Below are positions 3,199 to 54,222 of a stretch of DNA of 64,000 nucleotides, one piece after another. Position 1 is the first letter of the stretch. Every line of letters starts with the position of its first letter. The notes beneath the pieces are model-generated. The model did no database searches. It was not told the origin of the DNA and saw nothing but the letters and a program-made list of their open reading frames with translations. This DNA is from Perna viridis. Lineage: Eukaryota. The translations under genes and the position numbers were made by a program. The DNA lies in contig CM074523.1 of the NCBI GenBank assembly GCA_037379345.1, positions 11,786,551 to 11,850,550 of the forward strand. Direction: 5' to 3'.

Positions 3199-3929
3199 TT
3201 ATGAATATGTCACTCCAAATGCGTCAAGAATTTTTGTAATTGGTGTGGCAATGCACCCTTTTTTGTCTGGAAAAGTAGCTATGAGCATTCCGACACAACC
3301 TCTAGGATGGTTTGGGTCTATTGCATAGATGCAGGATCCCGAATCTCTCATCTTTGCTGAAATATTAGTGATATACAATTGACCATACATTCTTCTGTTT
3401 GTCCGTACAAGTATCTGTCTTTTGTGACATTTTTGAAGAAACGCTGTTTGCGTATGGACATCTCTTACAAAGGCGGAATAGTTTGTGTTAACTTCACGAT
3501 ATATTGCGGTTTCAAGAATCTCATTAAACTCTTGTGTTAACTCTCTATACTGCATCTGTACATCTGTATAATATCGAAGAACAATGTCACAAACAGCTTC
3601 TTTGATGTTATTTTCCAGTTTATCCTCATTAGCTAATATATCTTTAATATCATTTCGCGAAGGAATGTCACGCGGTTTTTTATTATTGATATTTTGAAAA
3701 ACTGACCCAGCTATGACTTTAACATCATCTTTAATGGTATTCCAGTAAATATCAGTTATTTGTTCAAGAGTGAATGGTTCTCCGTCGTCACATATTTTAA
3801 CAGGGGAGTTAATTGACGACAGTCCAGAAACTGCCCAGGCACTAACAGCCTTTACTGTAGGTTTAGTTATTAAATGACTCAGATCTATGTGAAGAATACA
3901 GTTCTGGTTCAAGTATGTGGACTGCATCC
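3199..3929 (-). pseudogene. Copy A last exon, protease C-terminal half (RDSG)
   Basis: Open frame homologous to 28842-29833: MRDSGSCIYA, CVGMLIA, CIATPITKIL. Confidence 0.85.
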
Positions 3930-5120
3930 CTGAAAAATAATATCTAGCATCAGAGATTTGAAAATATGAGGTTCTGACAGTTGTTTAACTTTTTAATTGG
4001 ATAATATACCCATAAGACCATTTTTACGTTTTTAAATTACGTTATTTCTACTCAAACTCGACTTCAGCATGAAAACAAAGCACACGACTTCCATTGATAA
4101 TTTCTCTTATAAGCTTTCAATCTTGTTTAATGTGTCTAATTGAAAACAGCGACGAAAATATTTGTTTTTGAAAATTACTGCTTATATCTGATATAATTGG
4201 AAATATTATGTTTCTGTTAATTCATATATTAGCGTTATAATCAATGATCTATACAACTAGAAAAAAGGTGATAAAGACAAACAAGATGACACCCGTAGTA
4301 ATAGAGTGTCGTTGGAAAATATGTGTGTAATGTTTGAGGAATTTTAGACTGCTTCGTAGTGGAACTTTCCTATAAACTTAAGTTGTAAAAAGTTTCAAAA
4401 ATGGATAAATGCATGTTCCAAAACGGTTTCTTTTTCGTCTGAAAGTAAATGCCTTCCTCACACACACACAAAAAAAAGAATAACAAATAATAACAAAGAA
4501 CACGATAAAACTGAACTTGCCATTCCTGATCTGGTCAAATGAGTGGAATGTTTAACAAAATACGTATGACTGCTTCATTATCACAAAACCTATGACTGTA
4601 GTACTTATGCATGAATTAATCGTATAACTAAATAGTCATTCATTATTATACAAGAGTGTGATAGAGCAATTTGTTACCCCGCGAAAATCATTGTCATCAC
4701 AAGGCGTTGCCGAGGGTGACAATGTATTCTCAAGGCGTAACAAACTGTATCACCCTCTAAGATATATGTTATTTATTTTATTATACTGAATGTTCCACTT
4801 TCAAAGTAAGTCCCAACAATCAGTTTTGTATGTTTGCCTTTTGTCTTTATTTTCTTCACTAGAATTGTTTTATTTCTTTCAAGTCATATATTAAAGGTCA
4901 ACTATGGATCACGTCCCTTTTTGTCACCTTCATTGAATGAATCGGTGATTTCCGTGCTCACTAACACAGATGTGTATAAGATGACTTTTTAAACTTGTGT
5001 TTCTGTTTAAGTTTTTTTTGTGTATCGGTATTGTAATCAACTGTTACAAAGGTCTCTTACGAGACGGATTTTTAACAACAATGACATATATTTTCATTTA
5101 ACCACTTTCTTTACCAGTTC

Positions 5121-5687: not shown

Positions 5688-6869
5688 CAATATCATGCAT
5701 ACTGTGTTTTTCATCACACGAATTAGCATCCAAAACATTGTCATTTTGATCAATATGCATTGCATCTGCTACTCTCACAAGTGCAGCATCAATGCTGACC
5801 TCTTTGTCATTGTCCATCCTAAAAATTGGATCGTAATGTTCCACTCAAAACCGTCGTTGACGCTTCACCACATTTTGCTGGTTCGTATATGTAAACATAT
5901 AGTTTCTCTTCATCATTTATACCACAATTTTTAGTTGCGAGTTGGTCTGGAGTAAAAAGCACATGTGCACACGTGATATATGTTGAATCTCCCCTTATTT
6001 TTACGAACCCGCCTAGAATACCGCTACGGTTTGGTGTCACCCCACTTGACTTCCTACTTTGATATTGCTACATAGTTGAGAACTGCCCTCGATGACATCA
6101 GTAGGAAGCCCATTGCAGTGAACTGGAAAGTGATCTTCTCCAACAGGAATGAAACCCTTCACTCGACAGTACAAGTGCAGACATTTCATCTCCTTGATTT
6201 TCCATTGTTCTAGATCTCTTTGCCTGAATCCTACAGACTTAAAAGGTGACGACAAGACTATAGTTAGTTTTGTATGTTTGTCAAAAATCTCCCTAGCGGT
6301 CTTCGCATCCACGCAAGTCTTTGATGGAAAATGAAGTACACCTTCAGCAGCCTGAATCTTGTCGTGAATTGAACTGCTCTCTTCACTGCCATAGTATGAG
6401 ATTTGCATAATTTGAACACCATGAAAGTTTTCTATCAAATCAGGATTTTTTGTCTCATTCTCAACTATTATTCGAACATCAGGTGAACATATAGTTTTCT
6501 TAGTCACACTTACTTTTGTGCAAATACATTTGAATCCTGGCCAAATATCAACGATATTTCCAAGAACAATTTCATTCGCTCTGTAAAAATGCTTTGTTAT
6601 GAACCATGAAATTGCTTTACAACAATCGTATTGATCTTTCTCAATACTTTGTTTCATAAGTTGATGTAATAAGGTAAAATTTGTGTCACACTCCGAATGA
6701 GATAGAATAAATCTGCACAACATTACTTGATTCTTTTGAACAGCATATTGTAGTAGTTGATGAAAGTTACAGCATTTAGACTTCATATATTCCGTCTTAT
6801 TTGCCATAAATAGTATTGATTCAAATTCATTTCCTCCAAAATCCTGTAATGATGATAGAACATCGATAT
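5688..6869 (-). pseudogene. Copy A protease exon (His, Asp) with two frameshifts
   Basis: 1182 nt, the same length as in copy B. Reads DIDVLSSLQDF... KGFIPVGEDHFP... GILGGFVK... YITCAHV... SIDAALV across three frame segments. Donor ATTG|GTAAGT. Confidence 0.85.
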
Positions 6870-9566: not shown

Positions 9567-9674
9567 CTTTAATCATTGTTTTGTCTTTGTGTACTTTGTA
9601 TCGCTCTTGTTTCTCGCTAACGATACAGTTTACAGCATAGCCGTTCAGCCAGAGTAGATTTGTCATTAGTGTAT
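9567..9674 (-). pseudogene. Copy A linker exon (DTLMTNLLWLNGYAVNCIVSEKQERYKVHKDKTMIK)
   Basis: 108 nt and open, with a ttttcag acceptor and AAAG|GTGATT donor, phase 1-1. Homologous to 37891-37999. Confidence 0.8.
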
Positions 9675-10404: not shown

Positions 10405-11345
10405 ATTAAATTAAATGAACCATATGATCCAACAATGCGATTTTAAAGGCATGGCATGCATTTTTGAAGTTCTTTCAAATCGTAAATAACTTTAACTTAT
10501 CATTTACCTAAAGGGTAGATATACTGGCTTTCTTTTGTTGCCATTTGTATATACGAGAGCCTTAGTTTAACACGTTTGGAAGCTTCCAGAATTTCGAGAA
10601 GAAGTTCCAATATCTAATATCCCAAAACTACCTAGTGACCTACTTGTCTAACATTTTTTCCCAATATTACCTGAAACTGCACCTAAAAGTTCAATGCTTT
10701 AGTTATACCATACTTTAAACCCATGCAATTCAATTCTACTTTTACATCTATAAGGACATGGAGATTGTGTTTTTTAGATTTTCTGAATGGTTTCATAATC
10801 GGTAAGGGGTAATGCAATATCGCCAGCAATGTCTGTATCCATCATTTGTGTTCCTGTACAATTATATTGTTAGAGGTAGTATGCGTTTTTCTTAGATATT
10901 TGATTAATACATAAAACTGTCTTATACCAAATCTAAATGGCTGCTAAAACTTAATGAAGTGGTAATGTTTGAACAATTATATGGAATACGTACAATTAAT
11001 AGAATGATCATGTAAAAGTTTTGTATTCTAAATGAGGAACAATATGTAATTCCACGTTGACGTATAATATGCATTCTTGTTAAAAGCACATTGATAAAAA
11101 TAACACCAAAACAAGTGCCCGTATTGCAGTGGAGATTTATTACACCACGACTTACACATGTTACAGATTGAATTAGCGATTATCAAATTTTTCAAAGCAA
11201 AAACAGAGTTACAGAATAAAGTAACAATATAAAAATAAGATCATGCACTAAAAAACGCACTCTTCAATTAAATATACTGATTTGTATATGTTTTCCCAGT
11301 TGATAAGCCTGTCTTGATTTTAGTAAATTGACAATTTATTCTTAC

Positions 11346-13060
11346 CATGTACTGCATTTACTGTTGGATTCATGTTTTTCCCATCATTTCTGACAGACGT
11401 TTTTTTTTCTATATACATCATCGTTGATTGGGATTATTTTGTTGTTATTCGAAAGTAAATACATCGCTATATCGTACTTTTCCTGTGCAAAGGCAGCATA
11501 AAAAGATGATTGTTCATTCCCACGACAAAAATGCCGTTCATCCGCCTCAAATAAAAATTTCACTAAATCTAGATTACCCCCTTTGCAAGCAGCATGCAGC
11601 AATGATGGTTCCTTCCTATCAAACAGTGTAACGTCAGAATTTATTAAAATTTTAACTAACGAGTTGTTACCTTCCTCCAATGCAATATATAACGGTGTTT
11701 TTCCATTTTTGTCACGCAATGAGGTATCAGAAATCTTTGTCTAGTAAAAGTTTTACAATTTCATCGTTCCCTGTCTGGCAAGCATGATGTAACGGCGTTT
11801 GTCCGTTGTTATCCCACAACGGAATATCAGCAACTTTGTTCAGTAAAAGTTTAACAGTGTTTTCGTTCCCAATATATTTCTGGCATGCAACATGTAACGG
11901 CGTTTGTCCTTTTTGATCACGCGAGGAGATATCAGCATCTTTGTCTAGTAAACCTTTTACAATTTTATCGTTTCCTCTCTGGCAAGCATGATGTAACGGC
12001 GTTTGTCCGTTGTTATTACGCAACGAGGTATCAGCTTTTTTGTCCAGTAAATGTTTTACAATTTCATCGTTCCCTTTCTGGCAAGCACAATGTAACGGCG
12101 TTTGTCCGTTGTTAGCACACAACGAAATATCACCAACTTTCTCCAGTAAATGCTTAACAGTTTGTTTGTTCATAATCCATTCCTGGCATGTGACATGTAA
12201 CGGCGTTTGTACGTTTTATCACGCAACGAGGTATCAGCATCTTTTTCTAGTAAAAGTTTTACAATTTCATTGTTCCCTTTTTTGCAAGCATGATGTAACG
12301 GCGTTTGTCTGTTGTGATCACACATCGAAATATCACCAACTTTCTCCAGTAAAAGTTTAACAGTTTGTTCGTTCATATTCTTGCATGCAACATGTAACGG
12401 CGTTTGTCCTTTTTTATCACGCAACAAGGTATCAGCATCTTTGTCTAGTAAAAGTTTTACAATTTCATCGTTCCCTTTCTGGCAAGCATGATGTAACGGC
12501 GTTTGTCCGTTGTTATCACACAACGAAATATCAGGAACTTTGTTCAGTAAAAGTTTAACAGTGTTTTCGTTCCCTTTTTACCATGCAACATGAAACGGCG
12601 TTTGTCTGTTGTTATCACGCAACGAGATATCAGCACTTTTGTCTAGTAAAAGTTTTACAATTTTATAATTCAAAATTCCTTTCTGGCAAGCATGATGTAA
12701 CGGCGTTTGTCCGTTGTTATCACACAACGAAATATCACCAACTTTCTCTAGTAAAAGTTTAGCAGTTTGATCGTTCAAAATACATTTCAGGCATGCGACA
12801 TGTAACGGCGTTTGTCCGTTTTTATCACGCAACGAGGTATCAGCATCTTTGTCCAGTAAAAGTTTTACAATTTCATCGTTCCCTTTCTGGCAAGCATAAT
12901 GTAACGGCGTTTGTCTGTTGTTATCACGCAACGATGTATCAGCATCTTTGTCTAGTAAAGGTTTTATAATTTTATAGTTCTATGTCTGGCAAGCATCATG
13001 TAATAGCGTTTGTCCGTTGTTATCACACAACGAAATATCAGCAACTTTGTCCAGTAAAAG
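11346..13060 (-). pseudogene. Copy A ankyrin exon, about 16 repeats, disrupted
   Basis: Five ORF fragments with GQTPLHHAC repeats. The terminal repeats (TPLYIA, PSLLHAACKGG, SSFYAAF) match copy B. Donor CATG|GTAAGA at 11346. Confidence 0.9.
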
Positions 13061-14090: not shown

Positions 14091-14880
14091 ACATCTGCGG
14101 TATAGGCCTTATTAATGCCATTATTTTCTACGTCTACCGCTGTTAATAAACATTTGATGTAACATGTTTTGCACACTAAAACTATGTTGTTTTGTTTTTT
14201 TCTGCTGGTACAACATATTTGTCATGTATAGTAGATAATGTTTTTGCTACATTTGGGCCTTTGAAAACTAATGTTGCATTGACACTCATTGATCTACTTA
14301 GAAAAACTGGCGTACGTTTCAAAATTATGCAAATATTGTATTATTCAAACCTTTCTGTTCAATTGATATATTGAAGGAACACCAGCACAAATATTTGTGC
14401 TTTCGTTATATTATACTTTTCGTACAAGAATCTGAAGTTTTGATTGGTTCAAGAGACATTTGGTATTTGGTCTATTTCCCACTGTGCCTCTCCCGTTGTA
14501 TAGTTTGCTGTCATGGTATATCACCATGATTTACAATAGATCATTTCGATAGATCACTTTCGATATAACACCCGCTCCAACCGGAAGTTGCGTTCCTAAC
14601 CCGTATGCGCATTCCGGCTACACAAATAAATTTGCACTTCCGCCAAAACAAACATATCAGACGACAGTGTACTGATAAATACAATGGCAGCATTTGCGGA
14701 CGTTGACATAGAAGAAATTCAAAAGTTTTTGTCCGAAAAATACAAAAACAAACTGTTGGAGTATGACATCATAAATTCAACGCAGTTAGTCAAATGTACT
14801 AAAAGCAACTAACATAATATTTTTTTCTACCACCAGAGAATGTCACGACGAGGTCTTACAGCGGTATATACCCGACTTAA

Positions 14881-15681
14881 AGGGGTTGTCTTTGTTCAGC
14901 AGTCAGGTTTAAGTATCTTTATTGGTCAGAGAACCTCGAATTAACGGTCTCTGAGGTAACACAATTTCGGTACCCACATTCAAAATTCTGTGAGCTAAAC
15001 ATTGACAATAATTCGACCTACTATTTGTCGTCTTCAATGACAAGTTGAGTTATGTTTTTGCCCCTTCTTCTTAAATCCAACAATTTGTTCCGCCATTTCA
15101 AATCCCGGAATTTGCTCGTTTGCATTAATTTGTATTATTTCTAGCAAGAAGTGACCAAAACATAACAGAAGTATAGATTCATAATATGTATAAACACCCA
15201 AAATTTAGTGATTTTAGCCAATTTTAAGGCACTTGTTTGCCATCTTCAAATTTACCGGAAGTATTAGGTATTTCTTATCCCTGTTTCATACAATAAAGTA
15301 TGAAAAGTACGTTTGTGCCAAATTTCAAGCTTCTTACAAAATGTGCACCAGGTCAACAAAGTATTACAATTTTGGTACATGTTTTTTTTCTTCAAATGGA
15401 AACACGCTTAACTTGTCATACTAAACAGATGTGTATACAGTTTTACACTACTGATTTTGAAAAATTCAAAAATACATATTAAGTTTACTATTATATTTGT
15501 TTATTTATCATCGGTGTCTACATGTTTTGTCATACGAAGTTGAATATAACGATTTCATAAAGCAGTCCAAACTTGTCCTTGGATCATTTCATGTTGTGTA
15601 TGTCTTTTTCATATATTAACCTGACTCTATGAACATGCATATTTTAGTTGATGGGTTCAAGTATTTGAATTTGTCTCCCCT
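14881..15681. mobile_element. Non-autonomous DNA transposon with TTAA flanks (Kolobok-like)
   Basis: TTAA|AGGGG ... CCCCT|TTAA. The TIR is short and there is no coding capacity. Confidence 0.45.
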
Positions 15682-18600
15682 TTAAATAACTTTAAATAAT
15701 GTAAAGTATATTTTGTCATGTTTTTGTATCAATTGTGTGATTTCCCACCTCAAGCAATATCAAAATGATTACATTTTTTAACTTATTGATTTCTGTGTTA
15801 TTTATATATTTTTGTTTTTTGTTTAGAAATTTTTTCACGAAAGAAAATTAGTTTGCATGCTGCCTTACGAAAATGTTTATTACTTTTTCCTTTTTCTTTT
15901 CGAATATTTACGAGAGACCTTCGTTTCATACATTAGATGACACAAAAATGCGACGATGTTATGTATGCATCTAACAATAAGTAGACCACTACGAATCTAT
16001 AAGGGCAAACATACCATCATGGTATACATGAAGTATGTGTAATTTGTATAACCTATTTGGTCTAGTTATTAGATAAAAAGTACAGCATTCGTTCTTTTAG
16101 TTGTAACACAGTTAATAACCATGTAATGAGAACTACTTTTTATAACCGTATGTCAGTTTGCAGATGTCCAGGAGCAAAGGAAGGAAAACAAATGACTTGC
16201 TTTCAATGAAAGACAACTTGACATCTACATCGTATTTCAGATCATTTCAAATTTGTCAGAACGGCATTTGTTGGATAGATAGGGTACAAATCAACCTGTT
16301 ACTATATAAAAGGACCATCTGCCACACTCGATGACGTTAGATATTTATTTTGTAATTCATTGTCTAAAATTATAGCATCAGAAGCCGACTCCACTAACAT
16401 TCTAAAAATATGCATTACAGCACATTGAATTGAGGCCTCAAATGTGAACTTGTATATGCCATTATGATGTCATTTGTATAGAAAAATGATCAAACCAACT
16501 GCGGTAAAAATGACATCAAATAATGTTTTAGTCTATCATCTACCATATACTGTTATGATCTACGTGGCATGTAAAATTAAAAGAGTGGGAGTAGGACTGG
16601 CATTTTGCGGTACAAAGAGGAAAAAGAGGAAGTACATTAACATTGAAAGTTGAAGAGATGCTTTTTCAGTATATTCATCAGTGTTGAAAAATCCAATCAT
16701 TCTAATCTCAGTCTAACAAAAGATTTAGCCATATTTTAATTTAATAAAAAAAATTACAAAAATAGGAATAAAAAAATCCTTATATGTTACCTTGTGTACA
16801 TGTAAATTTCTTGTTTACTGCAGTAACGATCATGACGGTCATTTGTAAGCCTCGAACCAGTTACAACATTTAGGACATATACGTGAAATCGGTCAATCAC
16901 TACGGTTTGTATTCTTACTCGGGGTGTATCTACAAAGTCTGTTGATAAGGTCGTACTGAAAATTAAACGATTGAAAGTTATCCAAAAGTGGGATGTTTAA
17001 ACAAAAATTGTGTTAAAACTCAGAAGGTCTGAGCAAATATTTGAAATCTGAGAAAGGGGGGTTGATAATTTGAAGAAACAGGCACGATTTTTTTTCTCAT
17101 CTGTTTGTACGATTTGTAGTGATCTAAAATCGAAAGTAAATAAAGAAATACTAGAATAACATTGTCATAGATAACTCTAAAACGTTACTCAAATCTCTTA
17201 GCTTTCGTAATGCGTTAGTTTTATTCGTAAAGTGGTCGTTTTCAATGCTCGTTTTCCAAAACATGTACAGAGTGTCTGTGTTTGTTTTGTGTTCATTGCT
17301 CGTTCTCCGTTCGATAAAAAAAACTCCTCTATCCTTTTACGCGTTGCTTGCATGTTCGTTTTTATTTTATTCGCAACATAAAGTTTTTATCTGATAGATG
17401 ATTCTTCTATTTTTAATTTGTTCAATGTTTGTTCGCTCAATTTGTCATAGATTCGGCGGCCCTTAAGCGATTGGTTTAACTAGTATCTCTCAAAATCAGA
17501 AATGCCACCCTTTCAAATAACTTGGTTGAGATCGTGATAGAGATCAAGGCAGGCTCAAGTTAAGCAAGACATATACGCCCTTTATATCGAGTAAATAATT
17601 ACAAGTTCTAATATTAAAAGTCATTATTATCAATCTTGGCTCCTTTTAAAAGTAGCAGTGTGTGATTTGGTATGTCGCACAAACAATTTAACATCTTACT
17701 CTAAGCTTATAGAGAAAACTACTTCTATCAATTTTAATTTGCTGTGTTTTAATAACTGGTATTAAAATTGATGTAAAAATGTACCATAAACCGATATACT
17801 AAATTGCTCATATTGAGTATTGTATATTTTCAGTGACCTTAAACAGACCTTTTCCCGCAAACGCAGTATATTATATTAATTTTTCATGTAAAGTTTGAGC
17901 ATTCATTTTCATTTTAAATAGGGAAATCGCTGGAAGTATATTTCGATCGGTAGTCTATAGAATACTTTAAGGATAACGACAGGAAAATAGACACACACGA
18001 TATACAACATGAGATAACTAAAAAAACTAGTAGAAATTGCACATGAGGAATCTGGAATCAACTACCATACTGAGAGCATTGAATAGATTCACCGATAGGG
18101 TAAGCATCTTCTGCCTTTTCAGGAACACCCTGCTAGTTGCGCAAATTTAGACCAACAGATAGATTAAATGTATTTTAACATTCCAATGAAACTAAAGTTA
18201 AAGAAAAAAATCTCATTTTTACGATTATTTTTAGCTTTAAACTGGTAATAAATATGACTAGAGAAAGGTAATTAATGAAATAATAGAGAGATGATAGGTT
18301 GTCGATTGGTCGGTATATTACTGTAACTGAACCGATCCGTGCAACAAAAATTGCAATCGGTCATCGATCCGTCAAACCGATCGGTTGAACCGGTGATCGC
18401 ATTACGTGACCACAGAGCGATCAATATATTTTACGGTTTCCGTTGTCTTCTTTGTCAATTTTACACATATTTACATAATGCAATAGATTTAAATATAATT
18501 GTGTACTTTTACTTTACATAAGTTCTATTTTTAACAGATTATTCGTCATTTTACATAACAAAACTGCAATCAGATCGGTCACCGGTCATCGGTTATCGAT

Positions 18601-18959
18601 CCGTCAGCGATCAATCAGTCAGTGGTCATTTATCCGACAAACCGTTGCGCGGATCGGTTCAAGGACTGTATTTGTCTCAATTCGTCGCTTTTGTTGTCGG
18701 AAATGATGATGGTATCTTTGATCTGTGTTGAAAGTCCTATTGGTTTTATATATTGTTGGTTGGAATCTAAATTTGTTTTTTCAACACTCTCCATGACAAA
18801 ACAAAACAAGACACGCATACAAACAGAAACTTGATACCCTACAAATATTCCGCAATACAGGTCAACACTTTTTAAATAAAAGGTGAGACCTACAAGAATG
18901 CAATATGGAGAAAGTTTTTGAAAAGTTTTTTTATTAAGAAATATTTAAATAGATAATAG

Positions 18960-19260
18960 ACATAACATTCGAACGGTCAACCATAAATTGTCAATAGAAT
19001 CTGAAAAATGGCAAACTGTGGCACGGGAAGACAGCAAATGCATATTATGCAAAGGCGATATTGATAACGAACTCCACTATCTCTTTTTATGCTCATATTT
19101 TGATAATGAGAGAAACTCATTTATAAAGGAGAAATTAAGAGACAGACCAAACATTATCAGGTTTAATTAATTAATTAATAATAGAAACATTTCCGATTTA
19201 AACAATCTCTGCAAATTTATGCGTATTTTTTTAATTCAAACATGTAATCTCCTTGGACAG
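18960..19260 (+). mobile_element. Non-LTR retrotransposon ORF2 3' remnant (CCHC motif)
   Basis: RTVNHKLSIESEKW..RED..CILC..DNELHYLFLC matches the common LINE C-terminal pattern H.L.IE.GR..R..R.C..C..EDE.H....C. Confidence 0.7.
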
Positions 19261-20021
19261 TTGTTAACTTAACTGTTTTATACTTATATGTTAAATGCAG
19301 GTACCTCTGTTTTACCTTCGTATTTGTTTTTTTTTATATTTTCATAAATTTCTATGTTTATATTCTCTGTACCATTTTATTTTGGTAAAAAAGAGTAAAC
19401 TCTGGTATTTTTATTGAACACACAATGGGTGTTTATAAAAAAATATGATGGAGAAGTTCTCAAATAACGATGTTTAAGGTTGTATATCTGGGGTAAGGTA
19501 GATTATCCAAAATGTCGCGTTTTCGTTGTTCATTTTGCCATGGAAACCGATGCCACATCATCGTGCCAGATTACGAACTTTACAATGTTGATGTTTATGA
19601 TTTCATCAAAACCGCTTACAGATCAGTACAGAAATATAATATGCAATCTTTATTAGAAATGTAAGTATGCCATCTGTCCATAAACCTCAGTTACTCTTAT
19701 TCCTTCTATAAAGTAGTAAACCGAATAGGTGAAATATGTTTGGAAGCGGCAGCAGACGACCACATCGATTGTAAAGTCAGACACCGAAACTGGCCAAATT
19801 TGCTATGCATTTAAGTATGTTTTAATTCATATAAAATGAAAAATACATACATTTAAATTCCGGATTATTCAATATTTGACCTGAATATTTTTCTCAGAAT
19901 AGTAAGAACAAGTACCAAATTTATACTTTCTTCGGACATCGTAACAAATTACCTTTTAAATTTCACTATACAAACCGGCTTAGTGACGTCATGGCTCAAT
20001 CGATCTTGTTTAAACCTGACT

Positions 20022-22150
20022 AATACTGTCTATTTACAATTAAGTTTTCGAATTTAAGGTTATGGATGTATTTAAAAAAAAAAGCTTTTATTTCCTGTAT
20101 TGCACTTGAAAGAATTTCTCAGTGGTCATTATTTTCAACTTATATTTTCCTACACCTATGGTTCTAATACTAGTCAACTCTTACAGCACGTGAACAGAAT
20201 AAAAGAACTTACAATATTACTGTAAGTAGTATTTATATATTCATTTTGACGAAAAATATTTCTTTTAGTATCAGATTTGAATGACGAAATGGCAAAGTCA
20301 AAAGAAAAAAGGCAATTTTCTCACAAGCCACCATCCAAGCTTGTGAAAGAGAAAGACTGTCCGTAAGCGATGGGGTTATTTAAAATATATTGAACGGGTA
20401 TTTCGTATCAGTCATTCAGGTCAGGTCAGAGTGACAAGTTTTTGAAGTGACGAAAGGCTCTGCACTAAGTAAAAACTGTAAGATGACATCAATCAGCTGT
20501 TTTGGTGATTTTTATAAATTGGATCATTTGGCTGATAACAGTTGATTAATGACAATTTTTAGTGTTACTAAATTGTATTTAATTATGAATATAAACTTAC
20601 CTTAGTTTTTCATTGTGTAATTGTGAGTGAAATTCCAATTCAACATCTTTTATACAGTATAATATTCACACATATTCAATACTCAATCTCAAATTCCATA
20701 TCAAAATAATCACATCGTAACATCCTGTAATTTGACAATATTGTTTATATATAAGCACAGAATATAGGTATCTTAAATCACATGAAGATTACCAGTGTAC
20801 ATGGGTGAATTACAGTTGAATGCTGTTAATAAAGGAACATTATTGCTGAAAAGTTGAATAAACCAAAAATATAATATTTAAGTTGATAATGCTTAATTTT
20901 TAATCCCTTAAAATACAGTTGGAAAATGCTACTTTTTTGTCACTCGTAGTTATATGTATACTATCTTAATTTGTTAATTTATAATATAATCAAGTGAGTG
21001 CAGATAAATGCGTGAAAGAATCTTTTAGAATAAAAGACACCAGACAAAGTTTTATCTGTTTTCTCTAAGCAGTACATTTCGGCAAAACATTGATTGTACA
21101 GGTAAATCCACACATTTTTTGTACACATTTCGGACCGATAACAAGCCAACCGGGAATGTCCTATGGTGACTCCTCGTTGTATAATTCACGTTATAATAAT
21201 GATTATATTGATTTTAAAAAGTCTGGAAATTGAGATTCACAAACAGTCACGTTACACTACCGCTAATGAAGGTGCAGTTTGGGTCATTGGCAATTCTTAA
21301 CCGCTCAATCCTCTAAAACTCGCATTACAATATTCTAATGTTATAGTCTTGCAACTTTTAATGAATAATAACACATTTGCCTAATGTAAGGTCTCCATAT
21401 CTTTTATAAAATCGTATCCAAAAATTATTAATTAAACGTGCAAAAAAAAAAAAGAAAAAAGAAATGGAACGATATCTTCAATACTCGATAAAGTCAGGAC
21501 ATTGGAAAACTGATAATCGATAAAAGCAAAAGGAGTGTTCTTCCCTTCAGACACTATACTAAAAAATAAAACCAAAACAAAGTGTGTTTATTTTCGTGTG
21601 TTTATTGGCGGACGAACTGCCAAACAGAGGAATTAACTTGTGCCTCGATCAGGAGTCATGCACATATAACATGAGAAGTTACAGATTTTACATTGTGTAA
21701 TGGTATGTTTTAAGAATAAACGTGTCCATATTCCTATCCCAGATAAACCGTTATGTTAGATTACGATTCATGTTGTAAACTTATTTGTATATCGTGCGTA
21801 TTCGACCATCTTTAGTCCCAAAATAACGTATTGCAGACATTTTCCCACATGCCAGGCAACCATATTGGCATAAGGGGTAATTGATCCAAAAGTACACTGG
21901 GATAATAGTGACGAACGTCTTAATGAACCACCCGTACAGATAGAATAGTTTACGGAAATTGAAAACCACTGACTTTTTACGGCTCTACCATACATCCGGA
22001 AAACGGATTCATCATATATGTAATACAAATGCAGAACTTCAGCATAATTGAAATATAATTACATACATATGTATATCATTTTCTATGCGATTTCTAATTA
22101 CTTGTGATAACTCAGTGGTCTACTTGAATTATCTCTTTTTTCATTTTGTT
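20022..22150. repeat. Upstream non-coding segmental duplication, partner of 51451-54222
   Basis: 20022-20445 matches 51451-51993, 20920-22150 matches 52678-53880, and about 20500-20625 matches about 54130-54222. High nucleotide identity by eye. Confidence 0.9.
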
Positions 22151-41800: not shown

Positions 41801-44800
41801 GGTCTCTTCCTATCACACGGTGTAGCGCCAGAATTTATTAAAATTTCAACTAATGATATGTCACCTTTCTCACATGCAATATATAACGGTGTTTTTTCCA
41901 TTTTTGTCACGCGGTGAGGTGTTCGCAGTTTTTTTCAGCAAAACTTTGACCACTTCTCTAGCACTGCTTCCACATGCAACCTGTAACGGCGTTTGTCCGT
42001 TGTTATCACACAAGGAAATATCAGCATCTTTGTCCAGTAAAAGTTTTACAATTTCATCGTTCAATGTCTGGCAAGCATGATGTAACGGCGTTTGTCCGTA
42101 TTTATCACACAACGAAATATCAGCATCTTTGTCCAGTAAAAGGGTTACAATTTTTTTGCTACCCTTCTGACTTGCAACGTGTAACGGCGTTTGTCCGTTG
42201 TTATCACACAACGAAATATCAGCATCTTTGTCCAGTAAAAGGGTTACAATTTTATCGTTCCATGTCCGGCAAGCATGATGTAACGGCGTTTGTCCGTATT
42301 TATCACACAACGAAATATCAGCATCTTTGTCCAGTAAAAGGGTTACAATTTTATCGTTCCATGTCCGGCAAGCATGATGTAACGGCGTTTGTCCGTTGTT
42401 ATCACACAACGAAATATCAGCATCTTTGTCCAGTAAAAGTTTAACAGTGCGTTCGTTCCCAAAATATTCCTGGCATGCAACATGTAACGGCGTTTGTCCT
42501 TTTTGATCACGCGATAAGATATCAGCATCTTTGTCTAGTAAAAGTTTTACAATTTCACCGTTCCCTGTCATGCAAGCATGATGTAACGGCGTTTGTCCGT
42601 TGTTATCACACAACGAAATATCAGCATCTTTGTCCAGTAAAAGGGTTACAATTTTATCGTTCCATGTCCGGCAAGCAAGATGTAACGGCGTTTGTCCTTT
42701 TTGATCACACAACGAAATATCAGCATCTTTGTCCAGTAAAAGTTTTACAATTTCATCCTTCCATGTCCGGCAAGCATGATGTAACGGCGTTTGTCCTTTT
42801 TGATCACGCGATGAGATATCAACATCTTTGTCTAGTAAAAGTTTTACAAGTACATCGTTCCCTGTCATGCAAGCATGATGTAACGGCGTTTGTCCGTATT
42901 TATCACACAACGAAATATCAGCATCTTTGTCCAGTAAAAGGGTTACAATTTTATCGTTCCCTGTCATGCAAGCATGATGTAACGGCGTTTGTCCGTTGTT
43001 ATCACACAACGAAATATCAGCATCTTTGTCCAGTAAAAGGGTTACAATTTCATCCTTCCCTGTCATGCAAGCATGATGTAACGGCGTTTGTCCGTTGTTA
43101 TCACACAACGAAATATCAGCATCTTTGTCCAGTAAAAGGGTTACAATTTCATCCTTCCCTGTCATGCAAGCATGATGTAACGGCGTTTGTCCGTTGTTAT
43201 CACACAACGAAATATCAGCATCTTTGTCCAGTAAAAGGGTTACAATTATATCGTTCCTTGTCCGGCAAGCATAATGTAACGGCGTTTGTCCTTTTTGATC
43301 ACGCGATGAGATATCAACATCTTTGTCTAGTAAAAGTTCTACAATTACATCCTTCCCTGTCATGCAAGCATGATGTAACGGCGTTTGTCCGTTGTTATCA
43401 CACAACGAAATATCAGCATCTTTGTCCAGTAAAAGGGTAACAATTTTATCGTTCCATGTCCGGCAAGCATGATGTAACGGCGTTTGTCCGTATTTATAAC
43501 ACAACGAAATATCAGCATCTTTGTCCAGTAAAAGAGTAAATTTTATCGTTCGATGTCATGCAAGCATGATGTAACGGCGTTTGTCCGTATTTATCACACA
43601 ACGAAATATCAGCATCTTTGTCCAGTAAAAGGGTTACAATTATATCGTTCCTTGTCCGGCAAGCATAATGTAACGGCGTTTGTCCGTTGTTATCACACAA
43701 CGAAATATCAGCATCTTTGTCCAGTAAAAGGGTTACAATTTTATCGTTCCATGTCCGGCAAGCATGATGTAACGGCGTTTGTCCGTTGTTATCACACAAC
43801 GAAATATCAGCATCTTTGTCCAGTAAAAGAGTTACAATTTTTTCGCTACTCTTCTGACTTGCAACATGATGTAACGGCGTTTGTCCTTTTTGATCACACA
43901 ACGAAATATCAGCATCTTTGTCCAGTAAAAGGGTTACAATTTTATCGTTCCGTTTCTGGCAAGCAAGATGTAACGGCGTTTGTCCTTTTTGATCACGCGA
44001 TGAGATATCAGCATCTTTGTCTAGTAAAAGTTCTACAATTACATCCTTCCCTGTCATGCAAGCATGATGTAACGGCGTTTGTCCGTTGTTATCACACAAC
44101 GAAATATCAGCATCTTTGTCCAGTAAAAGTTTTACAATTTCATCCTTCCCTGTCATGCAAGCATGATGTAACGGCGTTTGTCCGTTGTTATCACACAACG
44201 AAATATCAGCATCTTTGTCCGGTAAAAGGGTTACAATTTTATCGTTCCATGTCCGGCAAGCATGATGTAACGGCGTTTGTCCTTTTTGATCACGCGATGA
44301 GATATCAACATCTTTGTCTAGTAAAAGTTTTACAATTACATCCTTCCCTGTCATGCAAGCATGATGTAACGGCGTTTGTCCTTTTTGATCACGCGATGAG
44401 ATATCAACATCTTTGTCTAGTAAAAGTTCTACAATTACATCCTTCCCTGTCATGCAAGCATGATGTAACGGCGTTTTTCCGTTGTTATCACACAACGAAA
44501 TATCAGCATCTTTGTCCAGTAAAAGGGTTACAATTTTATCGTTCCGTGTTTGGCAAGCACGATGTAACGGCGTTTGTCCGTATATATCACACAACGAAAT
44601 ATCAGCATCTTTGTCCAGTAAAAGGGTTACAATTTTATCGTTCCCTGTCATGCAAGCATGATGTAACGGCGTTTGTCCGTATTTATCACACAACGAAATA
44701 TCAGCATCTTTGTCCAGTAAAAGGGTTACAATTTTATCGTTCCGTGTTTGGCAAGCACGATGTAACGGCGTTTGTCCGTATTTATCACACAACGAAATAT

Positions 44801-44975
44801 CAGCATCTTTGTCCAGTAAAAGGGTTACAATTTTATCGTTCGCGTTCCATGCCTGGCAAGCAACATGTAATGGCGTTTGTCCAATATTATTACTCAATGA
44901 TGTATCCGCATTTTTGTCCAGTAAATATTTTACTTTGTTTATCTGTCCTTTACGACAGGCAATATGTAAAGGCAT
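28842..44975 (-). CDS. Copy B: spliced ankyrin-repeat / NAL1-like trypsin-fold serine protease gene (exons 41544-44975, 37891-37999, 31575-32756, 28842-29833); 3 frameshifts, either assembly errors or recent pseudogenisation; true 5' end uncertain
   Basis: Donors CATG|GTAAGA (41544), GAAG|GTAATT (37891) and CTTG|GTAAGT (31575). Acceptors ttttcag (37999), tttgtag (32756) and ttttacag (29833). Phases match (phase 1) if one A is removed from the A6 run in the small exon. Copy A has the same exon layout. Confidence 0.8.
31575..32756 (-). CDS. Copy B exon: helical region, NAL1-like pro-region and N-terminal half of the protease (catalytic His and Asp)
   Basis: Open 1182-nt exon containing LHLYSRLKGFVPVGESHFP..GLPVDVIEG, GSTVG..GTLGGFV, YLTCAH (His codon 31855-31857) and SVDAAVV (Asp codon 31678-31680). 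Confidence 0.88.
32888..35520 (-). mobile_element. Degenerate near-full-length Penelope-like retroelement with N-terminal GIY-YIG endonuclease followed by RT (Naiad-type domain order), inside a copy B intron
   Basis: Minus-strand order: KCSIKNCKTC, NLIYGLECNLC, REEYWIR..GTAIPYGCND (GIY-YIG), then SKGPKYREP, MGINCAPLLADLFL, FRYIDDVL, SYLDL and TKLYDKRD..F..VNFP..SAPAYGVFISQLIRYARAC, then a 3' UTR. Many stops and frameshifts. Confidence 0.88.
36320..36830 (+). mobile_element. CR1/L2-group LINE 3' end remnant
   Basis: VPRVRTTTHGAHPFRYGGAKLWNELSN..W.GSSC then stop, followed by a T-rich 3' UTR with an aaagctct..agagcttt hairpin. Confidence 0.65.
37891..37999 (-). CDS. Copy B linker exon (DTLMTNPLVLHRYAIDCIVNAKQGRYTLHKEK...), not in the ORF track
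   Basis: AG/GT boundaries and clear homology to copy A exon 9567-9674. It is 109 nt versus 108 nt, with the extra base in a homopolymer. Confidence 0.8.
39830..40235 (-). mobile_element. Penelope-like 3' fragment in a copy B intron
   Basis: Similar to about 32900-33385 with deletions. Absent at the paralogous site in copy A (about 10510). Confidence 0.82.
41544..44975 (-). CDS. Copy B ankyrin exon, about 34 repeats of 33 aa (99 nt)
   Basis: ORFs 43512-44975, 41870-43504 and 41491-41910 give repeated DxxGQTPLHHACxxxNDKIVTLLLDKDADISLC. Frameshifts at about 43537 (2-nt loss) and about 41895 (extra A in a run). The exon ends ...NAVH-G at a GTAAGA donor. Confidence 0.93.
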
Positions 44976-45627
44976 GTCTCCATTATCTATAATTAATTAT
45001 TTTGTTTGTATTAAATTGGATTTGTCTTTAAGTAAAAGTTAGTTTTTAGACGTTGAAGTATGCAGATGTGTTGTACTTATACCTTATTCTACAGATCTTA
45101 AAACGTACAGGATTCCCATTTACACCATATACTATCCCTTATTCCCCGTTTTCACCAAAATTACCCATTCCTCATAGAAAAACCACCATCCCAAAATAGA
45201 AGTCCCATTGCCTTTTTTTTTAAATATTCACATTATCAAATTCCTTTCATATATGGTATAGCTCTTTAATGGCATATGATGGAATGGAACTTCCCACCTA
45301 TAGGATATACCACCACCACCCCATTCCCCATTTCGCTTTCCCCATTACCCTTTAAAAAATTTTCATTGCCCATTAAATTCCCCACTGCATATTTTTTTAT
45401 CGAAGACTTTCATTATCAAACTAAATTTATTTTTTTTCTAAATTCTAAATATTTTAAGCTAAATTTAAATATATATTATTATAAATAAATTGTTAAAAAA
45501 AGTTTTCCAATCCTACTATTTGAAAATCTCCATTCCCCGACACCATCTTTGTCTCCATTCTACATTATCCATCTCCCATTCCCCTTTCCCCAAATACAAT
45601 TTAATGGGAAACTTTTCTTATACAAGT

Positions 45628-46740: not shown

Positions 46741-48664
46741 ATTGGTGTTTCAACGTTGGCCCAACGTAGTATCGCAGTTTAGATCCCACACAATAGTTGG
46801 TTTCATACAACCGGATTTCCTTTCTAGTTTTACTTTCTTGAGACCGACATACATTTTTGCATCAAGAATAATATTTAGTCTTTTTTAACATTTTTGTTAC
46901 CCAAGTCGTTTCGACGTTGGTTCAATGTTGGTTCAGTGTTGGCTCACTGTTTCTGGGTTGAACAGATGTAGAATAATGCAAATCATGTAATCATGGTTTT
47001 GATTTAAAAATCAGAATTTAACAATACTCTCACGCAGAATTCGCTTCTAAAACAAATTTTTAAAGAGAAATATAAAATGAAATGGTTGTTCAAATATAGT
47101 AGGACCAACGTTTGACCAACGTTGGGCCAACGTAGTATCGCAGTTTAGATCCAACACAATATTTGGTTTCATACATCTAGATTTGCTTTCTAGTTTTACT
47201 TTCTTGAGACCGACAAACAGTGTTGGCTCACTGTTTCTGGGTTGAACAGATGTAGAATAATGCAAATCATGTAATCATGGTTTTGATCTAAAAATCAAAA
47301 TTTAACAATACTTTCACGCAGAATTCGCTTCTAAAACAAATTTTTAAGGAGAAATATAAAATGAAATGGTTGTTCAAATATAGTAGGGCCAACGTTTGAC
47401 TAACGTTGGGCCAACATAGAACCTGTATATGATATAAAAGTATTTAAATATTTTTACTATACGATTTTCATGAACATTTGACAAACTGGTTGGACTATTT
47501 ATAACTTTCACAATGGTATAGTCTTATATTTTACTAAATGTTATAATATTTGAACTAATTATTAAACAGAATCGCTAAAACATTGTGATCTCACCATTAT
47601 CATATTCAAGGTATGAAATGTCAAACAAGTTCTCCGTATCTAAATTTACTTTGTGAAACATCGATGTCTTCATTCTTTTCTCCCTCGATGATGACTCATC
47701 TTCCGAAAATCCTAACGTCGTTCCCAGGATATGGTCAGTGTCGAAACCTAAGGTAAAAACATTTTCTAAACGACATAGTTAACCCTTATAATTAAAGGCT
47801 CTAGAGAGCTTGAATCGCTTACAAGGTCCAAAATAATTGATAAGCCTTCTAAGGGAACTTAGAATTGGACTCTCGACCGACCCTTCCTATACTATTGTCA
47901 TAAAAATCATTTAATTACTAGAGATAAAAGATATATCTGTCATAGAAATGCTCTGACCAGGTGAACTATTAACGTAAAGAAATATATGAAACATGTTAAA
48001 TAAGGCAAGAGAATCAAACATAACGCCAACAGTTGTAGACGGATCTGTCTTACAATTTCAGCAAAGGTCCGTCTCAACTAGCTGATCAAATTTGCTTGCC
48101 GCCAAATTTTAACTTCATCCAAACATTTTGGATTTATTTGCAAAGAATCTTACTTGGCCCGTTTAGAAACATCAACAATGTTATCCATCAGAAAAGGAGT
48201 TTGGAATGTAAAAAATTGCAAAAATTCCATTTAAAAGTCAATAATTCCAATATCGGTCAACATATCTTTATGTAAATGTCGGCAGAGGTCCATCCCACCG
48301 TACTGATTAACATACTCACGTCACAGTTAAACTAAACCCCTTTAATTTCGAGTAATTTAGAATTATGTAGGAAATTTGGGGAAAAAATCTATCTAAAGGT
48401 CCATATTGCAAACATTCGTCAACGGATCTTTTTAAAAATTGCGGCATAGGTTGAAAATCTCTATTCCCTGTCAAATATTAGCTACACCATCTTTTGAGTT
48501 ATTCGCAAATTTCTGAAATTTGGCCACTATGGCCTATTCTTAGTAACGGCGGTCACGTTTTTCGCGAAACACGGATTGTCAGATCCAGATAGTAGTGTAT
48601 CATTTAGAAAGTACTTGTAGTATAGGGTATTATACTTATTTACCACCTTAACAAATCAGGAGAC

Positions 48665-48667
<3 letters not shown>

Positions 48668-48710
<43 letters not shown>
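48668..48710. repeat. (TA)n microsatellite
   Basis: Read directly from the sequence. Confidence 0.95.
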
Positions 48711-48713
<3 letters not shown>

Positions 48714-49645: not shown

Positions 49646-51450
49646 ATATATATATATATATAGATATATTGGTGTTTCAACGTTGGCCCAACGTAGTATC
49701 GCAGTTTAGATCCAACACAATATTTGGTTTCATACAACCGGCTTCGCTTTCTAGTTTTACTTTCTTGAGACCGACATACAGTGTTGGCTCACTGTGTCTG
49801 GGTTGACCAGATGTAGAATAGAATAATGCAAATCATGTAATCATGATTTTGATTTAAAAAATCAAAATTTAACAATACTCTCACGCAGAATTCGCTTCTA
49901 AAACAAATTTTTAAGGAGAAATATAAAATGAAATGGTTGTTCAAATATAGTAGGGCTAACGTTTGACCAACGTTGGGCCAACATAGAACCTGTATATGAT
50001 ATGAAAGTATTTAATTTTTTTTACTATACGATTCTCATGAACATTTGACAAACTGGTTGGACTATTTATAACTTTCACAATGGTATAGTCTTATATTGTT
50101 ATAATATTTGAACTAATTATTAAGCAGAATCGCTAAAACATTGTGATCTCACCTTTATCACATTCTTGGTGTGAAATGTCAAACAAGTCCTCCGTATCTA
50201 AATTTACATTGTGAAACATCGATGTCTTCATACTTTTCTCCCTCGATGATGACTCATCTTCCGAAAATCTTAACGTCGTTCCCAGGATATGGTCAGTGTC
50301 GAAAACTAAGGTAAAAACATTTTCTAAACGACATAGTTAACCCTTATAATTAAAGGCTCTAGAGAGCTTGAATCGCTTACAAGGTCCAAAATAATTGATA
50401 AGCCTTCTAAGGGAACTTAGAATTGGACTCTCGACCGACCCTTCCTATACTATTGTCATAAAAATCATTTAATTACTAGAGATAAAAGATATATCTGTCA
50501 TAAAAATGCTCTGACCAGGTGAACTATTAACGTAAAGAAATATATGAAACATGTTAAATAAGGCAAGAGAATCAAACGTAACGCCAACAGTTGTAGACGG
50601 ATCTGTCTTACAATTTCAGCAAAGGTCCGTCTCAACTAGCTGATCAAATTTGCTTGCCGCCAAATTTTAACTTCATCCAAACATTTTGGATTTATATGCA
50701 AAGAATCTTACTTGGCCCGTTTAGAAACAACAACAAAGTTATCCAGCAGAAAAGGAGTTTGGAATGTAAAAAATTGCAAAAATTCCATTTAAAAGTCAAT
50801 AATTCCAATATCGGTCAACAGATGTTTATGAAAATGTCGGATCCGTCCCACCGTACTGATTAATTTACTCACGTCACAGTTAAACTAAACCCCTTTAATT
50901 TCGAGTTGTTTAGGATTATGTAGGAAAATTGGGAAAAATGTATCTAAAGGTCCATATTGCAAACATTCGTCAACGGATCTTTTTGAAATTTGCGGCATAA
51001 GTTGAACAACTCTATTCCCTGTCAAATTTTAGCTACACCATCTTTTGAGTTATTTGCAAATTTCTGCAATTTGGCCACTATGGCCTATTCTTAGTAACGC
51101 GGTCATGTTTTTCGCGAAACACGGATTGTCAGATCCAGATAGTAGTGTATCATGTAGAAAGTACTTGTAGTATAGGGTATTATACTTATTTTCCACCTTA
51201 ACAAATCTGGGAGACCTATCTGCAATATAGAAGGTCATATACAGCAGATATATTGCGATATGTTCTCAGGAGAGTAAGATGATAGACATATCTATCTATC
51301 TGAATCATCATTGGACCAATCACTTTGTGGAGGAAATAAACAGTAAATCAAAAATAACACTTGCAATTTAGATTTCACAAAAGGCAGGGTCGATGACTTT
51401 CATTTCAGACTGTTGACAATAACTGTTTAATTGTTATTTAAACCTGGCAA

Positions 51451-54222
51451 ATACTGTCTATTTACAATTAAGTTTTCGAATTTAAGGTGATGGATGTATT
51501 TTAAAAAAAAAATAGAAAAATACTTGTTTATGAGTTGCTGTGTGTTAGCGGTTGGAAGGGAACAAAAAATCAACAGTTATTTGTCATTTGAAAGCCTTTA
51601 TTTCCTGTATTGCACTTGAAAGAATTTCTCAGTGCTCATTATTTTCAACATATATTTTCCTATACCTATGGTTCTAATACTAGTCAACTCTTACAGCACG
51701 TGAACAGAATAAAAGAACTTACAATATTACTATAAATATATAAGTAGTATTTATATCATTTTGACGAAAAATATTTCTTTTAGTATCAGAAACAAAACAA
51801 CCAACGAGATTTGGCTAAACTTTTTTGTATGACGAAATGTCAAAGTCAAATGAAAAAAGGCAATGTTTCTCACAAGCCACCATCCAAGCTTGTGAAAGAG
51901 AAAGACTGTCCGTGAGCGATGGGATTATTTAAAATATATTGAACGGGTATTTCGTATCAGTCATTCAGGTCAGGTCAGGGTGACAAGTTTTTGAATTTGG
52001 TCCGCCGTAATATAGTGCGTGAAATTGTCGAAAAGTAACTTGGTGGGACGTTTATTCATTCTTTGCAGTTTGCTTCACTTTTAGAAAAAAATGTTTTAAT
52101 GGGTAGAATGGCTATTCTTATAGGATTCATGTATTTTGGCTATAGCATTTTGAGAGGCTCGTTATAAACTCGCCGTTTCCCTTGGTACTGCCTGAATACC
52201 CTGCCATAGTCTCCTTATTCATCGTTAATTATGTCATCTTTTTCCGTATTCCTTCTCCCAATGGTAATGATTCCTGTCCTTTTCTAAAAGTTCTTCTACC
52301 GGACATTCTATTGGTTTGGCGAATGTACAAAAAACCTGAAGTGAAATCGGTTAACAAATATGGTTATTATTATTGTTACTTTTTTAAAAAGTCATTTTAT
52401 ACGAAGATGAATTGAACATTATGAAGGGCAGTGTAACTTAAGTATTAATTTACAGAGTACAATATTTTTCTGCTGCGACTTTCTTTTAACTTTAAATTGA
52501 ATTTCATCTAAGTAACTATACAAAATGCTAACTTGCACTACTTCAGATATTTAATATTGTAACAAAAACACCCCGATAAGACCGCTGTCCTGTAGCCGTG
52601 TCTTACAGGAAAAGGATATTTTTTGTTAGAAAACTTTCGTTTTCAAAATTCGATTTAATGGTTTTGTATTTAATGTATGGAAAATGCTACTTTTTTGACA
52701 CTTGTAGTTATATGTATACTATCTTAATTTGCTAATCTATAATTTAATCAAGTCAGTGCAGGTAAATGTGTGAAAGAATCGTTTAGAATAAAACACCAGA
52801 CAAAGTTTTATCTGTTTTCTCTAAGCAGTACATTTCCGCAAAACATTTGATTGTACAGGTAAATCCACACATTTTTGTACACATTTCGGACCGATAATAA
52901 GCCAACCGAAAATGTTCTATGGTGACTCCCCGTTGTATAGTTCACGTTATAATAATGATTATATTGATTTTAAAAAGTCTGGAAATTGAGATTCACAAAC
53001 AGTCACGTTACACTATGGCTAATGAAGGTGATGCAGTTTGGGTCATTGGCAATTCTTAACCGCTCAAGCCTCTAAAACTCGCATAACAATATTCTAATGT
53101 TATAGTCTTGCAACTTTCAATGAATAATAACACATTTGCCTAATGTGAGGTCTCCATATTTTTTTTATAAAATCGTATCAAAAATTATTAATTAAACGTG
53201 CAAAAAAAAAAAGAAATGGAACGATATCTTCAATACTCGATAAAGTCAGGACATTGGAAAACTGATAATCGATAAAAGCAGACACTATTCTAAAAAATAA
53301 AACCAAAACAAAGTGTGTTTATTTTCGTGTGTTTATTGGCGGACGAACTGCCAAACAGAGGAATTAACTTATGCCTCGATCAGGAGTCATGCACATATAA
53401 CATGAGTAGTTACAGATTTTACTTTGTGTATTGGTATGTTTTAAGAATAAACGTGTCCATATTCCTATCCCAGATAAACCGTTATGTTAGATTACGATTC
53501 ATGTTGTAAACTTATTATGTATATCGTGCGTATTCGACCATCTTTAGTCCTAAAACAACGTATTGCAGACATTTTCCCACATGCCAGGCAACCATATTGG
53601 CATAGGGGGTAATTGATCCAAAAGTATACTGGGATGATAGTGACGGACGTCTTAATAAACCACCCGTACAGATAGAATAGTTTACGGAAATTGAAGACCA
53701 CTGACGTTTTACGGCTCTACCATACATCCGGAAAACGGATCCATCATATATGTAATACAAATGCAGAAATTCAGCATAATTGAAATATAATTACATACAT
53801 ATGTATATCATTTTCTATACGATTTCTAATTACTTGTGATTACTCAGTGGTCTATTTGAATTATCTCTTTTTCGTTTTGTCACATTGATAAATATGTTTA
53901 AACTAAACTAATTTTCCAATAAAAATTACCTTAACAGATACTTCCTGCTTAATAATGGGGTACAGTGGGGGGTGTCCAACGATATGACAAAAGGCAATAA
54001 ATAATCTTAACCTATTTGTTTGTTAATATTAAAGTAAAGGGGTAATTTATAAGTAATTAAATGCACAAGGTAAAATTGCAAGATAACTTTCTATAACTCT
54101 TTTCAAAACTGAAAATGGAATGGATGGTTTGGCTGATAATAGCTGGTTATTAATTGACATATTTTAGAGTTACTAGATTGTATTTGTTTATGAACTTACC
54201 TTAGTTTTTCGTTGTGTAATTC
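51451..54222. repeat. Upstream non-coding segmental duplication, partner of 20022-22150
   Basis: As for 20022-22150, with block order partly permuted and insertions. Confidence 0.9.

Follow-up and report, generated by a model that had tools for sequence, protein, structure and literature searches.

A window of 64,000 nucleotides from the Perna viridis genome (C13:11786551-11850550 of a 723-Mb assembly) was found to carry a tandem pair of minus-strand gene copies that join an ankyrin-repeat array to a protease. Copy A spans ~20.7 kb to 3.2 kb and copy B spans 54.36 kb to 28.84 kb; unless a contig is named, positions are those of the window, the whole stretch analysed. We think it probable that these are tandem copies of one gene whose 5' halves, from exon 1 to the second linker exon (L2), are far younger than their protease exons, having become so through at least two rounds of non-allelic recombination. 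The 5' halves are 3-27% diverged, and the protease exons roughly ten times more. A broken third copy on another contig (G000:C7:44977211-45000986, hereafter C7) provides an internal clock.

Divergence along the two gene copies

The features that enter the comparison are the following.

52678..53880: distal young block in intron 1 of copy B; its order differs from that in A and C7, and its divergence from 20920-22149 is 3.6%
20920..22149: A-side counterpart of the distal young block and likely source of 52678-53880; 7.2% from C7, like the neighbouring native DNA
51434..51995: proximal young block in intron 2 of copy B; 3% from 20081-20446 and 6% from 20006-20083
20006..20446: proximal young block on the A side
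41544..44986, minus: ankyrin exon of copy B, with terminal repeats and 29 counted tandem units, most of them 99 bp long; from sequence and RNA
11346..13060, minus: copy A ankyrin exon remnant; acceptor and 5' part gone, stops and frameshifts
41093..41200, minus: copy B first linker exon (L1), 108 nucleotides (nt); AG/GT ends, RNA depth of 20 at 41122 and 41138
10746..10853, minus: copy A linker exon L1
37891..37999, minus: copy B linker exon L2, 109 nt, one extra base causing a frameshift; the last homogenised exon; from RNA and borders
9567..9674, minus: copy A linker exon L2, 108 nt; A-B similarity stops near 9522
31575..32756, minus: copy B first protease exon (P1), with a helical region, a Nal1-like alpha/beta domain, the first barrel, TCAH (His) and DAA (Asp)
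5688..6869, minus: copy A protease exon P1; frameshifted, stop at 6037-6039
28842..29833, minus: copy B last exon (P2), GDSG (Ser), internal insertion relative to A
3199..3929, minus: last exon P2 of copy A; its frame is open and its serine motif reads RDSG
14298..38101, plus: stretch duplicated to C7 (upstream half of A and L2, P1 and P2 of B); colinear blastn pieces of 84-94%

Neutral divergence differed sharply along the alignment of the paralogs: synonymous divergence (dS) was 1.53 in P1 plus P2 and 0.13 in the ankyrin end plus L1, and the introns, repeat remnants included, stood at 0.03-0.27. The protease value (95% interval 1.18-2.23, 621 codons) was accompanied by a ratio of nonsynonymous to synonymous divergence (dN/dS) of 0.28, and it was nowhere near equality with the non-coding divergence. 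P1 alone gave 1.41 (1.00-2.19), with no internal gradient over its first 300 codons (1.10, 1.02, 1.22). The two protease exons share 49% and 42% of their residues, and the first 36 residues of the last exon include 17 identities when counted on the translations; an earlier sequence-only reading of this DNA, which put the shared fraction at about half, was correct on both counts.

Within the 5' half, the ankyrin ends are 86% identical and have a dS of 0.08 (0.02-0.16). Their dN/dS of 2.0 was considered as a sign of positive selection and rejected as noise, the dS interval overlapping the value of the adjacent ankyrin-L1 intron (0.156; 43 of 305 sites differ). L1 gave a dS of 0.30, the ankyrin end and L1 together 0.13 (0.06-0.22, 146 codons) and L2 0.46 (0.18-1.21), and both linker exons have a dN/dS of 0.5. 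The intron 5' of the ankyrin exon showed distances of 0.24 and 0.12, and pieces of the L1-L2 intron 0.27 and 0.14, with one difference in the 32 sites beside the L1 donor. Region 10714-11159 matches 41061-41509 at 84.9% identity. The earlier description of this neighbourhood (10720-11150 and 41067-41490) as an intron aligning almost base for base is not borne out: the similarity is 85%, and a coding exon of 108 nt (10853-10746 and 41200-41093) lies within it. The ankyrin units themselves appear to have turned over inside each array: among 29 B and 12 A units, mean distances were 0.12 within B, 0.18 within A and 0.18 between them, and the nearest neighbour within B lay at 0.03.

Two upstream blocks are nearly identical, as the sequence-only reading had noticed. 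The distal pair (20920-22149 and 52678-53880) differs at 43 of 1183 aligned sites (distance 0.037-0.039; 93.2% by blastn with gaps), and the proximal pair (20081-20446 and 51591-51995) at 11 of 363 (0.031). Measured against the ankyrin-L1 intron (43/1183 and 43/305; Fisher p=3e-10), the distal block is about four times younger. The exon-1 region of B differs from A at 15 of 103 sites and from C7 at 75 of 290 (15-26%). The inverted gradient of identity that had been proposed is real, but it is a patchwork rather than a monotonic slope, and a single recent event does not account for it: the ankyrin/linker tract is some four times as old as the young blocks, and the first exon shows no recent homogenisation. 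We read the 5' half as a mosaic of at least two ages. Two ages are claimed firmly and a third weakly, from the heterogeneity of the six older 5' segments (chi-square 20.2, 5 degrees of freedom, p=0.001; counts derived from proportions).

Colinear replacement describes the proximal block and the ankyrin/L1 tract, but not the 1.2-kb distal block. In A and C7 this block sits on the upstream side of the exon-1 homologue, in B on the downstream side of exon 1. This difference in order points to an out-of-order insertion and not to a promoter replacement. The proposal that the blocks form the promoter of B also fails on the RNA, which places them in introns 1 and 2, and on the divergence of the exon-1 region. 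They were considered as the 3' flank of a protease gene and rejected, no copy being present in the 40 kb left of the window and the RNA putting the block inside the B transcript.

Similarity stops ~40 bp past the donor of L2, near the linker exon where the switch had been placed. In the introns flanking P1 and P2, blastn at a word size of 7 detected nothing colinear: the linker-P1 intron yielded one 24-bp match and the P1-P2 intron no match at all. Because these introns do not align, we place the putative break in the L2-P1 intron.

Trees of the two halves conflict. For the protease tree, 22 rows were picked from 150 matches and only the stretch before the stop of A was used. It united B with C7 (100/99) and A with P0002, a protein from a public contig (100/99), in a clade of four (98/99) that leaves out every named Mytilus row of the tree. 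In the young blocks, the A-B distance is 3.0-3.6%, and that of either copy to C7 is 6.9-9.5%. By site pattern, 85 positions group A with B to the exclusion of C7, 29 group B with C7 and 20 A with C7 (unrooted). The protease exons thus give ((B,C7),A) and the upstream blocks ((A,B),C7), and congruence of the two halves was not seen. A protease dS far above the non-coding divergence, together with these conflicting trees, supports chimerism, and the mainly silent divergence of the protease exons argues that selection is not the explanation.

C7 differs from 14298-38101 by 7-11% substitutions and holds exons 2 and 3, which A has since lost. Its protease exons have frameshifts and a dN/dS of 0.92, and lie at a dS of 0.10 from those of B. 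About 43 kb from them, an open frame on the minus strand with TCAH and GDSG (L103:109-1101; G000:C7:44950109-44951101) was missed by the P1 and P2 searches.

Exon chain of copy B and decay of copy A

RNA evidence came from stranded raw reads (run X22) and from contigs (runs X5, X7 and X11), aligned to copy B, which is a single spliced gene with a transcript start near 54340-54360. The exons preceding the ankyrin array, and the one remnant of them in copy A, are listed below.

54200..54359, minus: copy B exon 1 (5' untranslated); RNA joint and GT donor
52174..52335, minus: copy B short exon 2, likely start codon at 52222, GC donor; X22 reads and frame check
50153..50305, minus: duplicate copy of exon 3, part of a local duplication
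47595..47747, minus: copy B exon 3, 153 nt, phase 1-1; joints 47745-50151 and 44986-47595
20599..20684, minus: remnant of copy A exon 1, donor conserved, 5' part deleted relative to C7; from alignment

The joints 54198-52333, 50151-47745 and 47595-44986 are all GT-AG on the minus strand, so that exons 1, 2, 3 and the ankyrin exon are linked by RNA; the first of them (52333-54198, CT..AC) occurs in nine X22 reads and in contigs of all three contig runs. Three X22 reads join 52176 to 47748, which yields a short exon 2 whose start codon is in frame with exon 3. In the majority of RNA pieces exon 2 continues to 50153 as one exon of 2183 nt, and X7 and X5 contigs cover ~50.3-52.3 kb. Exon 3 is doubled by a local duplication (47117-48666 and 49678-51217, 4.2% diverged), both copies of which are present in RNA joints. 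Downstream, a single X7 contig carries the end of the ankyrin exon and P1 with 216 nt between them, the sum of L1 and L2, and a single X5 contig carries both P1 and P2; the borders of L1 and L2 rest on coverage, this arithmetic and canonical ends. All internal coding introns of B are in phase 1.

In the assembly, B has frameshifts near 43540, at 41892 and in L2, and translation from the start codon would run for 558 residues before a stop. Of 15 X22 reads, 8 are without the extra base at 41892, and of 10 at 37904, 5 are without a base. That about half of the reads lack these bases suggests that intact and null alleles of B both exist. Contigs of the other runs are without a deletion at 41892 or 37904, contigs being prone to lose rare variants. 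The reads at 37904 were aligned at 90% likeness and may derive from a C7-like copy; at 32040, many further differences are present in 6 of 10 reads. Among the read-indel rows listed, none covers the lesion at ~43540. Six X22 reads jump back 99 bases at 42080/41982, which suggests that the number of ankyrin units differs between alleles.

Several other features of the B region were recorded. The last exon carries an insertion of ~90 residues relative to A (29150-29560) with a repeated 'FKNxVCDVV' motif, likely an internal duplication. The L2-P1 intron contains a decayed retroelement (32885-35500; weak RVT_1 match, expect value (E) 0.0018). It has no counterpart in C7 and is thus likely younger than that copy; fragments of it abound in the window and in all other regions compared. 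Short interspersed repeats are clustered in both orientations between the B ankyrin exon and the exons 3 (46196-49653), and at 10219-10403. A cyclin-Y-like gene on the plus strand (55100-64000; exon 60232-60408; E 3e-21) stands head to head with copy B. Its plus-strand RNA begins at ~55.1 kb, and the starts of the two genes are ~0.8 kb apart; they possibly have a promoter in common.

Copy A has decayed into a pseudogene: it no longer has exons 2 and 3, the ankyrin acceptor or the 5' portion of exon 1, and stops and frameshifts interrupt its ankyrin exon and P1. Exons 2 and 3, which flank the A-side proximal block, are deleted in A and kept in C7. P0002 is nearly identical to the P1 frame of A and ends at the same stop, so this stop is probably not an assembly error.

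Reconstructed history and its alternatives

The distances, the conflict between the trees, the exon chain of B and the lesions of A are established by the data. The course of events that we infer from them, including the mechanism, the direction and the order within the 5' half, would have had five steps. The protease gene would have been duplicated in the lineage (dS ~1.5), and both proteases kept under purifying selection (dN/dS 0.28). The whole 5' module would then have been copied across or homogenised, with a break in the intron after L2 (0.12-0.3). Next, a 24-kb piece over the A/B junction would have been copied to C7, where it decayed (0.07-0.11). Later, two short tracts would have passed between the copies, the probable direction being A to B; one would have landed in place, the other out of order in intron 1 of B (0.03-0.04). 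Finally, the start exon, exon 3 and the ankyrin acceptor would have disappeared from A, and frameshifts would have arisen in it. Both copies of the blocks are as distant from C7 as native A-side DNA is, which suggests a transfer from A to B after the C7 duplication.

Several observations weigh against this reconstruction. The three-copy pattern is unrooted, and the second step may have run in either direction. P2 taken alone has a dS of 1.76 with an infinite upper bound on a heavily gapped alignment, and at fourfold sites, 55 of 100 of which differ, the protease distance drops to ~1.1 if a saturation level is assumed. The intermediate dS of L2 could mean that the break is a staircase. Segments of one age vary as well (0.07-0.11 between the window and C7; 4.5-19% in 200-bp windows of B and C7), which makes a division of the older 5' tract into two ages a weak claim. 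For exons 2 and 3, one long young tract may instead have entered B, with deletions in A afterwards. X5, X7 and X11, three of the four RNA-type runs, were taken as RNA by guess; among the matching runs listed in the run search, none is on record as RNA.

The alternative that survives best, which we nevertheless regard as unlikely, is a true module swap, close to what the sequence-only reading called sensor/effector module swapping, where sensor and effector are predicted roles. The 5' module would have been duplicated once onto an older protease paralog with a different sensor or none, for example by duplication of B followed by a deletion fusing the new 5' half to the A protease into a new architecture, and the young blocks would be later noise. 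The sharp loss of all intron similarity after L2 and the symmetrical phase-1 exons fit a swap. So do the relatives of the protease: their N-termini are fn3, nSTAND3, HEPN_DZIP3, DED, Roc-COR or ankyrin, and the closest named ones from Mytilus have no ankyrin array (P0003 has no Pfam match, and the longer cluster member P0152 has an N-terminus that is of low complexity by eye). The Mytilus relatives without ankyrins, however, lie outside the A+B clade, window frames of at least 70 amino acids hold no remnant of another N-terminal domain, and no close donor of the ankyrin end appeared among the 150 of 306 candidates scored, the next best reaching 41%. This best non-self match, an nSTAND3-ankyrin gene 0.77 Mb away, was rejected as donor of the module, as the likeness is generic. 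Chimerism itself stands, but a different earlier sensor in the recipient is conjectural; conversion between two ankyrin-bearing genes fits equally well and overlaps the second step above.

Much less likely is a dispersed mobile element as the origin of the near-identical blocks, or an error of assembly that put two haplotypes in tandem. A difference of 3-4% is within the range of allelic divergence in bivalves, the displaced position of the distal block is what an insertion would give, and copy numbers from the genome search are lower bounds. That search, however, found at least three full-length copies of the distal block, all at the A, B and C7 loci, on which a high-copy transposon was rejected. 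The order on the A side is independently kept in C7, and A and B differ in their deletions relative to C7. A joint in an X5 contig (52609-52647) implies passage over the B junction at 52673/52678, the second piece not being among the rows listed, and the ankyrin/L1 tract, at 14%, would be left unexplained.

We give hardly any credence to an absence of chimerism, with 5' DNA kept by selection and fast-evolving protease exons: short exons and splice-proximal DNA can be under constraint and the linker dN/dS of 0.5 fits this, but the protease divergence is mainly synonymous, the similar DNA takes in introns and repeat remnants, the trees conflict, and the A-B distance in the young blocks (3.6%) amounts to half the 7% that separates either copy from C7, opposite to the order in the protease exons.

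Protease relatives and comparable systems

Copy B has TCAH, DAA and GDSG, i.e. His, Asp and Ser in trypsin order. In an alignment of 40 rows K236 and G271 are invariant, and T297, C298, H300 and D359 nearly so. An AlphaFold model of P1, without the serine half, was built on 40 rows (predicted local distance difference test score 79.7). Rice NAL1 was the best match to it both in Foldseek (E 1.5e-5; template-modelling score 0.18) and in VIA-align (Z 7.3; root-mean-square deviation 8.5 over 160 residues), the global scores being weak. On this modelling the protease is judged to be Nal1-like. Single exons of the window matched neither Nal1_C nor Peptidase_S64 in Pfam, and when P0003 was compared by sequence with solved structures, no match fell below E 0.2.

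The genera represented among the named relatives of the protease are Mytilus, Tegillarca and Saccostrea. Pfam was run on 55 of the 150 listed, mostly the longer ones. Five matched Nal1_C or Peptidase_S64, two of them above the curated cut-off, and 34 had no match at all. Ankyrin was found in five, nSTAND3 in four, HEPN_DZIP3 and NHL in two each, and fn3, DED, DUF4559 and a weak apolipoprotein match in one each; one protein had two of these domains. P0001 has Roc-COR. A word-based homologue search yielded one match among 1106 candidates. Five distant paralogs of 27-35% identity were recorded in the genome (G000:C8, C9, C1, C15:12.04 Mb and C7:22.40 Mb; L006-L009, L012). Near or upstream of two of them lie HEPN_DZIP3 or ankyrin frames, candidate partners whose splicing to the protease is at most presumed, and two frames upstream of the C8 paralog are presumably TIR-like, judged by eye, with no Pfam match. 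Three matches to the serine half only, of 55-63%, lie near nSTAND3-ankyrin genes at G000:C15:13269824-13388986 (L065, L067, L068), with no P1 match within the 100 kb examined.

Exchange limited to the 5' part of tandem paralogs is an already known process. The closest known case is SIGLEC11 and SIGLEC16, with repeated gene conversion that homogenises the ligand-binding 5' part, relaxed constraint on the converted exons and common non-functional alleles (PMC5701461). There, as here, the paralogs are neighbours with a homogenised 5' part; the SIGLECs, however, are described as membrane receptors with opposite signalling tails and tested ligands, whereas here both tails are homologous proteases and copy A is dead in the assembly. 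Rice NAL1 is a serine protease with an H234/D291/S385 triad that works as a hexamer (PMC12012508). Its structures (PDB 8pn1, 8pn2 and 7y77) resemble the bivalve protein in the His-Asp-Ser order and in an alpha/beta domain before the protease barrel, in keeping with the top structural match of the P1 model. Identity is 13-17%, and three parts set the bivalve protein apart: an additional helical region, a long helical insertion that precedes the serine, and the ankyrin array. Expansions of bivalve conflict proteins with variable combinations of ankyrin, STAND, HEPN and Death-like domains have also been described (PMC8195603), and these partner domains recur on relatives of the present protease. 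The available part of that source, however, describes TRADD-N proteins and mentions trypsin-like effectors for prokaryotes, and this protease family was not met there. In the literature covered, subscription journals lying outside it, no description of a bivalve Nal1-like protease family or of this locus was found.

The product of an intact B allele would be an intracellular Nal1-like serine protease with a long ankyrin array, the predicted role of the array likely being to bind a ligand or substrate. An immune role for the family is suggested by analogy, from the partner domains. We advance only tentatively the wider view of a bivalve family of intracellular Nal1-like immune-effector proteases with shuffled phase-1 exon modules (ankyrin, nSTAND3, HEPN, DED, Roc-COR, fn3), in which this locus would represent the joining of an ankyrin sensor to a second, older protease, after which one product would have been lost and null alleles of the other become common. 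The value of the locus lies in a well-dated case of 5'-limited exchange, with the C7 copy as its internal clock, and in a lead on a modular Nal1-like protease family of bivalves. If these proteases are indeed immune effectors with exchangeable sensors, the intact and null alleles of copy B would permit an association test with infection outcome.

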